From: a phage
Length of the DNA stretch: 64,000 nt
Strand: one strand, 5' to 3'
Sequence record: PZ179882.1
Position numbers and translations under genes: made by a program
Part shown: positions 18,025 through 18,779 of the stretch, in pieces
How the letters are laid out: every line of letters begins with the position of its first letter
Position numbering within the stretch: position 1 is the stretch's first letter
The notes under the pieces: generated by a model
Told to the model about the DNA's origin: nothing
Database searches by the model: none
What the model saw: the letters and a program-made list of their open reading frames with translations, nothing else

Positions 18025-18573
18025 ACCCAAGAAAACATCTACAGAACGTTGATACCACTGCAAATCCAAATAGCCATTACGCACATTAAACTGATAGAAC
18101 ATGTGACAAGGCGGTAATGCCATTTGCTTGAGTTCAGCTGGATTCCACGCCGACACAATTTGACGCCTATCGTTTGGAAATGTTTTAATACGATTAACAA
18201 CTTCTACAATTTGGTCTACACCGCCAAAATCACGCCATTGTTTTCCGTAAATTGGACCAAGTTCACCACTATGATAACCTAGGTCTTTGGCCTGATTTTC
18301 GTAGTTTTCATCCCAAATCGTTTTTCCAGCAATTAAAGATCCATGAGTACGTTTACGTAGATCATTTACGTTAGTACTTCCTGATAAGAACCACAATAAC
18401 TCAGAAATACACGCATTCCAGGCGAGCTTCTTAGTTGTTACTGCAGGAAAACCTTTAGTTAAATCCCAGCGTAATTTAGTACCGAACAAAGCAATTGTTC
18501 CTGTGCCTGTTCGGTCATCGGTTTCGTAGCCATTTTCTAGAATATCTTTAATTAAAAATTGGTATTGTTGCAT
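18025..18573 (-). CDS. td: thymidylate synthase, exon 1 (N-terminal 183 aa)
   Basis: [26 protein letters not shown]…PPCHMFYQF…RSVDVFLG then in-frame stop at intron start; start taken at Met 5 of track ORF. Confidence 0.9.
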
Positions 18574-18779
18574 TAGTTCATCCAAGAATATGTAGAAGGA
18601 TATTTGGCAAAGTTAGGCTTATATCCTAATTTAGTCATTTGTTTTGCTTTGCTAGTAAATCCTAAAGAACGCTCACCTTTAAGATATTGTTTTGGTGTCA
18701 TAGGCCCTTGATGCATCTGCCGACAAATAAAAAGGGCCATAGCATTAGGAACATCCTTAACTTTTAATTTATTGCTCAT
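18573..18779 (-). CDS. hypothetical basic protein, 68 aa, between frd and td
   Basis: ATG overlaps frd stop (ATGA) and stop overlaps td start; no recognisable homolog. Confidence 0.45.

Follow-up and report, generated by a model that had tools for sequence, protein, structure and literature searches.

In phage T4 the gene for dihydrofolate reductase, frd, runs directly into td, the gene for thymidylate synthase. The T4 record gives frd as 145109..145690 and the end of td as 145112, which is a 4-nt ATGA overlap and agrees with the td start that a sequence-only reading of the present DNA had placed at the frd stop of T4. T6-type phages hold a 115-aa gene, td.1, at the same junction. A review of T4 genomes names frd and td as auxiliary metabolism genes only. 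Flexible, non-core small early genes are described for T4-related genomes (PMC2993671), and the gene reported here, ORF68, resembles them in being small, non-essential, patchily distributed and placed among conserved genes of auxiliary metabolism. It differs from them in that its position is unusually fixed, always abutting td, and in that it bears a clear signature of recent exchange between genera. No literature was found on the family PHROG 9550, to which ORF68 belongs, on RB32ORF229c, or on the ORF68 peptide sequence.

The DNA analyzed, called the window below, is a stretch of 64,000 nucleotides (record PZ179882.1) from a T4-like (Tequatrovirus) phage. The analyses described below indicate that ORF68 is very probably a genuine, non-essential accessory gene of T4-like phages that occupies a polymorphic slot immediately upstream of td.

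The frd-td junction and its comparison with T4

The ORF listing of the window contains a 68-aa ORF with an ATG start at exactly 18573..18779 on the minus strand, the strand that also carries frd and td. The features of the region are as follows.

18776..19357, minus strand: frd (dihydrofolate reductase), 193 aa, with 94% amino acid identity to T4 Frd and named frd in the matching records.
18776..18779, minus strand: ATGA, the ORF68 start over the frd stop, from the strand itself and the T4 alignment.
18573..18779, minus strand: ORF68, 68 aa, 7.8 kDa, characterized by its PHROG 9550 match, purifying selection, family alignments and an AF2 model.
18570..18775, minus strand: 206-bp segment missing in T4, a single 206-column alignment gap.
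18500..18800, minus strand: approximate island of high DNA identity to JS98/IME341-type phages.
18581..18583, minus strand: GGA within TGGATG (ORF68 codons W66-M67), a candidate Shine-Dalgarno sequence for td, 7 nt before the td ATG.
18571..18575, minus strand: TAATG, the td start sharing one base with the ORF68 stop, read from the strand.
18025..18573, minus strand: td exon 1, 183 codons, with its ATG at 18573, placed by comparison with relatives.
17009..18024, minus strand: td group I intron, with boundaries taken from the T4 exon ends.
17156..17893, minus strand: the I-TevI gene inside the td intron, 245 aa, 96% identical to T4 I-TevI.
16697..17008, minus strand: td exon 2, 103 codons and the stop; the joined coding sequence is 286 aa and ends in ...KMAV, like its relatives.

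The ATG of ORF68 (18779-18777) and A18776 together form ATGA, in which the frd stop, TGA, is 18778-18776. At the other end A18573 is common to the ORF68 TAA (18575-18573) and the td ATG (18573-18571), which gives TAATG. The td start is set at 18573, not at the in-frame TTG at 18585 of the ORF listing, because the comparison with relatives places it there. Both the ORF with its overlap on the frd stop and the overlap of its end with the td start at 18573 had been claimed by the sequence-only reading; the strand and the ORF listing agree on the first, and the minus strand reads as claimed for the second. Overlaps of 1 or 4 nt with td also occur in Marfa, CIP9 and the locus L009.

Overlapping stop and start codons, as used to define coupled gene pairs, are present at both frd-ORF68 and ORF68-td. 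From this arrangement, ORF68 would be made from a polycistronic early/middle frd-td mRNA. Ribosomes would terminate at the frd stop and restart on ORF68 at ATGA, and those ending ORF68 would restart on td at TAATG, in which case td expression in phages that carry the gene would depend on translation of ORF68. TGGATG is invariant across the four-lineage alignments, and its GGA may serve as the Shine-Dalgarno sequence of td. No promoter- or terminator-like site was found within 18573-18779. We rejected the idea that a hairpin, opened by upstream translation, masks the td start, as no conserved or unusually stable RNA structure was found there (2 pairs in the consensus fold; z-score of the single sequence, -1.1).

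Alignment of the T4 and window junctions shows one 206-nt gap in T4, no other rearrangement, and flanks that are near-identical up to the breakpoints. The window keeps the frd 3' end and the ATGA of T4, and the context in which ORF68 starts is that of td in T4; it differs in being 206 bp longer and in that td starts at TAATG with another upstream context. AATG stands at both ends of the 206-bp segment, so its boundary can slide by up to 4 nt, and the repeat is AATGA in SH7 and Marfa. An insertion or replacement of roughly 200 bp had been proposed for this junction. What stands is a sharp extra segment of 206 bp that holds one ORF and has a history unlike that of its flanks; the proposal is limited in that the T4 junction is also what an exact deletion across short direct repeats would leave of either of the two occupied alleles described below.

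A diverged or replaced td N-terminus, which the same reading had also suggested, was an overstatement. The product of exon 1 is identical to that of T4 at 164/183 residues and the differences are spread over the exon, so the N-terminus is homologous and not replaced. There are 19 differences in all, three of them in the first 12 residues (K2Q, D6F, F12L), with a denser patch at residues 74-86. Within exon 1, divergence from T4 and T6 is raised at 18140-18360 of the window (residues 74-86 and 123-132; e.g. 38/60 nt), and T4 and T6 are nearly identical to each other across these patches. The patches suggest that mosaic recombination may have occurred inside td. A gathering-threshold Rfam scan of 16000-20000 returned no match, the td group I intron included, presumably because the 738-nt endonuclease ORF breaks the match to the model.

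Distribution of ORF68 and the alleles of the slot

A megablast search with the 551-bp junction found 569 phage records, 136 of which cover ORF68. A tblastn search with ORF68 found 238 phage records at E<=0.01. Identity is at least 80% in 138 of them, 60-80% in 28, which come from Klebsiella and Enterobacter phages, and below 60% in 72, mainly from Phapecoctavirus. Approximately 136 Tequatrovirus GenBank records hold ORF68 between frd and td, and copies at this position have 95-98% amino acid identity in about 130 records. The ORF is annotated as "hypothetical protein" in more than 100 T4-like phages, and it is therefore an ordinary variable gene and not a new insertion. PHROG 9550 ORFs of Escherichia phage vB_EcoM_ACG-C40, Shigella phage pSs-1, Yersinia phage fPS-90 and Marfa likewise lie between frd and td under that annotation. 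The window copy differs from the commonest sequence at two residues (S43, T49), neither of them material. Two other labels were rejected: DUF4858, in the record of phage Shinka, since ORF68 has no Pfam match at E<=10, and flagellar biosynthesis protein, in the records of PYPS2T and vB_EcoM_P8, since there is no Pfam or NCBIfam match.

Dhakavirus (JS98), Marfavirus, Kanagawavirus and a metagenomic T4-like phage also have ORF68 immediately before td. The distance from the end of ORF68 to the td start is 0-4 nt in 10/10 distinct T4-like loci, whatever stands upstream. These loci are Marfa; CIP9 and a relative; SH7 and a related contig; JS98, IME281 and IME341; and two metagenomic/IMG/VR phages. 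A closer ORF68 alignment was used for the search for related loci, which yielded 8 loci. In the RefSeq record of JS98 (NC_010105; L022) a 202-nt unannotated gap between td and frd, 1715-1916, holds an intact ORF68 that is 96% identical. In Shigella phage SH7 (L005, around 2540-2550) and an IMG/VR contig (L021, 893-1097) ORF68 has the same split frame. The split in SH7, where ORF68 is unannotated, comes from one extra A in a run of A residues (CCAAAAAAAATAT vs CCAAAACAATAT) and reflects either a true pseudogene or a sequencing error in the homopolymer. More distant homologues, 29-44% identical, are present in Phapecoctavirus and three other phage types, among small early genes or near replication genes, and no td or frd was found within 3-5 kb of them.

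The slot between frd and td has three alleles: empty (T4, a minority), td.1 (T6 type, 363 records) and ORF68 (136 records). The rarity of ORF68 implied by the sequence-only reading does not hold, given that approximately 136 of the 569 matching records have ORF68 here and 363 more hold td.1. That reading had named the same ORF in T4 and its relatives as grounds for refutation; it is found at this position in relatives, although not in T4 itself. Since T4 and T6-type phages have no copy, and 238 records are found by tblastn vs 569 with the flanks, ORF68 is non-essential. An uninterrupted match across the empty junction was obtained only for T4 strains and a limited number of other phages, including RB55, RB59, vB_EcoM_112, HY03, SG1, JEP6, G28, FL12 and FL18. 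Many Tequatroviruses that match the flanks have about 416 bp in between, a segment that in T6 is td.1.

The gene in the T6 slot (L012, 1676-2087) goes by the name td.1 in one T6 record, whereas the RB phages have it as RB32ORF229c. In T6, RB14, RB32, RB51, PP01 and others it is the alternative occupant of the exact slot of ORF68. It is bounded by 7-nt TAAATGA direct repeats at the same insertion point and, like ORF68, has no Pfam match; the name 'putative homing endonuclease' that it bears in one record is thus not supported by Pfam. It differs from ORF68 in sequence (there are no cross-matches), in overlapping neither frd nor td, from which it is separated by 20-nt and 44-nt spacers, and in that Kanagawavirus and other lineages have homologues of it alongside ORF68, on the frd side. 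In CIP9, L018 and L019 a td.1-like gene and ORF68 both lie between frd and td. The first of the two ORFs between frd and ORF68 in CIP9 is 44% identical to td.1, and the ORFs in this position in Marfa and L009 are weakly related to it. Some genera therefore have a td.1-like gene together with ORF68, and Tequatroviruses have one or neither. The T4 and T6 td flanks are identical at 181/183 residues, which gives the T4 junction the look of a T6 allele that has undergone precise deletion, or conversely.

In T6 (L012, around 2040-2087) td.1 and td are separated by a 44-nt spacer with the sequence TTAGCTTCATAAAATGTATTATAAT. We take it to resemble a T4 middle promoter, with a MotA-box-like GCTTCA followed by TATAAT. 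If this is correct, td of the T6 type would have a promoter of its own, and td of the T4 and ORF68 types would be without one.

History of the ORF68 cassette

Between the window and JS98, IME281 and IME341, ORF68 has 96-97% DNA identity and a synonymous divergence (pS) of 0.05-0.13, whereas frd has 76-81% identity and pS of 0.47-0.59, and td 74-76% identity and pS of about 0.70; over these two genes pS runs from 0.47 to 0.71. The pS values for ORF68, frd and td are 0.52, 0.79 and 0.80 between the window and Marfa, and 0.61, 0.72 and 0.82 between the window and CIP9. None of the flank windows of equal length has a pS as low as that of ORF68 (0/344 for JS98/IME281/IME341, 0/344 for Marfa and 0/346 for CIP9). 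In the island at 18500-18800, 43-48 positions in each window of 50 are identical to JS98/IME341-type phages; the flanks have approximately 29-43/50, with one closer stretch in frd. Low synonymous divergence in ORF68 against high divergence in frd and td fits acquisition or replacement by recombination, and points to ORF68 as an exchanged cassette. The conserved 3' end of frd and 5' end of td would be the sites of homologous recombination by which such a cassette passes from one T4-like phage to another during co-infection. Low synonymous divergence over 68 codons could in part reflect constraint at the nucleotide level rather than transfer, but constraint cannot easily explain 96-97% identity beside flanks of 74-81%.

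The best surviving alternative is that ORF68 is an ancestral, fixed partner of td that T4 and the T6-type phages lost by precise deletion, with no insertion in the window lineage. ORF68 lies directly upstream of td in five genera and a metagenomic lineage, as would be expected of an ancestral gene, and its divergence is in line with that of the flanks in the pairs Marfa-CIP9, Marfa-L009 and CIP9-L009. Differential loss is allowed by CIP9, L018 and L019, with their two slot genes, and the T4 junction is what deletion would leave of the ORF68 allele, across its AATG(A) repeats, or of the T6 allele, across its TAAATGA repeats of 7 nt. Against this, the Tequatrovirus ORF68 resembles its counterparts in Dhakavirus, Marfavirus and Kanagawavirus far more closely than frd and td resemble theirs, and therefore at least the Tequatrovirus and Dhakavirus copies were exchanged recently. 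Loss with no insertion here is accordingly a possible history, but a doubtful one. Ancestral presence of the family and recent re-acquisition in this lineage are mutually compatible. On the comparisons above, the simplest reading would be that ORF68 is old in T4-like phages and tied to td, and that the Tequatrovirus/Dhakavirus copy has been exchanged recently.

The ORF68 protein, its family and its possible role

ORF68 matches PHROG 9550, a family of unknown function, with E=4.3e-44, residues 1-68 aligning to profile positions 1-68 of 68, and the profile is matched by all 30 aligned relatives. Pairwise dN/dS values among the copies of the window, Klebsiella phage Marfa and Enterobacter phage CIP9 are 0.16, 0.19 and 0.28, and ORF68 is under purifying selection. 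R20, M48, G52 and P55 are invariant in the family alignment, and K4, K6, P11, K34, F41, L51 and Y53 are nearly so. The length of the family members is steady at about 68-77 aa, with conserved positions along the whole protein. Conservation across several phage genera, dN/dS of 0.16-0.28 and the full-length PHROG 9550 match show that ORF68 is more than a chance ORF. When 5.8 billion proteins were searched by indexed words, the single sequence retrieved 19 clusters and a profile 40, and an exhaustive HMMER scan of 1.84 billion representatives (50% identity) gave only 11 matches, including a repetitive protein that matched spuriously. It is a small family, found in phages only.

The protein is strongly basic (+10), with a pI of 10.1 and 12 K/R vs 2 D/E. 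An AF2 model built on the 30-sequence alignment has a pLDDT of 86.5 and a pTM of 0.65, with predicted helices at 13-24, 29-39 and 43-49. With 15 close sequences the model was of poor quality (pLDDT 63.9), and Foldseek found no match to it in the PDB. A structure search of BFVD with ORF68 returned only a member of its own family. There was no match to ORF68 in Pfam at E<=10, in NCBIfam, among the PADLOC models at E<=1, or among PDB sequence profiles with two alignments, and no Pfam family recurs across the 30 family members. The protein is thus not thymidylate-synthase-like, as the sequence-only reading had held: neither a TS nor any other Pfam match was obtained. Pfam detected no homing endonuclease catalytic domain (GIY-YIG or HNH, as in the T-even seg/mob genes) in ORF68, and a tri-helical fold superposable on known HTH domains was not found.

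We tentatively suggest for ORF68 a function early in infection, in which it would bind nucleic acid or a host protein; this guess is based on its charge, size, genomic company and dispensability. Its role would then be an accessory or host-adaptation function and not dTMP synthesis.

A narrower reading is that ORF68 is a counter-defense or host-takeover protein that binds a host protein, and that some hosts select for its spread between lineages. It is an accessory gene, patchy and in a variable slot; it has spread laterally in recent times with very low divergence; its homologues in distant phages sit in blocks of small early genes; and it has no enzymatic or known domain, all of which speaks for such a protein. 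However, no known family was matched, and it is basic whereas DNA-mimic inhibitors are acidic, and we consider this role rather unlikely. The lack of PADLOC matches says little on the matter, because PADLOC covers defense systems and not counter-defense proteins. Bolder and somewhat less likely again is the combined proposal that ORF68 is the founder of a new small fold without structural neighbors and has a host-directed function such as counter-defense or takeover, that its near-identical copies in Tequatrovirus and Dhakavirus, amid diverged flanks, reflect a recent selective sweep of the 206-bp cassette among co-infecting T4-like phages, and that the site upstream of td is a fixed 'docking site' for exchangeable accessory genes, ORF68 and td.1.

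Because ORF68 adjoins td so strictly in T4-like phages, it could have a td-related role and work together with thymidylate synthase or the td mRNA: it might regulate td translation, take part in the dNTP-synthesizing complex, or be an RNA chaperone for splicing of the td intron. Both the invariant adjacency and the overlap of its stop with the td start speak for such a role, and ORF68 is small and basic, like RNA chaperones. A td-specific role is nevertheless less likely because the homologues with 29-44% identity have no td or frd within 3-5 kb and because T4 and T6, which do without ORF68, run the same pathway and splice the same intron. Marfa, CIP9, SH7, JS98 and L009, moreover, have ORF68 beside an uninterrupted td. 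We regard a partnership with td as improbable. A role as chaperone or maturase of the td intron in particular was rejected, as many phages with ORF68 have an intronless td.

That ORF68 is a chance ORF, or a functionless relic of some mobile element in decay, for example a homing endonuclease gene, is largely refuted and extremely improbable: homing endonuclease genes often occupy intergenic slots of T-even phages, one record gives that name to the T6-type slot gene, and ORF68 is frameshifted in SH7 and the related contig, but the low dN/dS, the constant length with conserved residues throughout the family, the absence of GIY-YIG, HNH or other Pfam matches in 30 members, and the confident prediction of a compact fold all argue against decay.

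ORF68 is already known as a common, annotated hypothetical gene, of which the reference phage T4 simply has no copy. In itself the finding of ORF68 adds little; only the three-allele slot and the signature of lateral exchange are mildly notable. At the frd-td junction, with its three alleles, T4 represents the rare empty state. This is worth knowing where T4 serves as the template for annotation, because ORF68 is missed in the RefSeq record of JS98. The clean signature of recent exchange between genera makes the cassette a reasonable candidate for inclusion in host-range and counter-defense screens.
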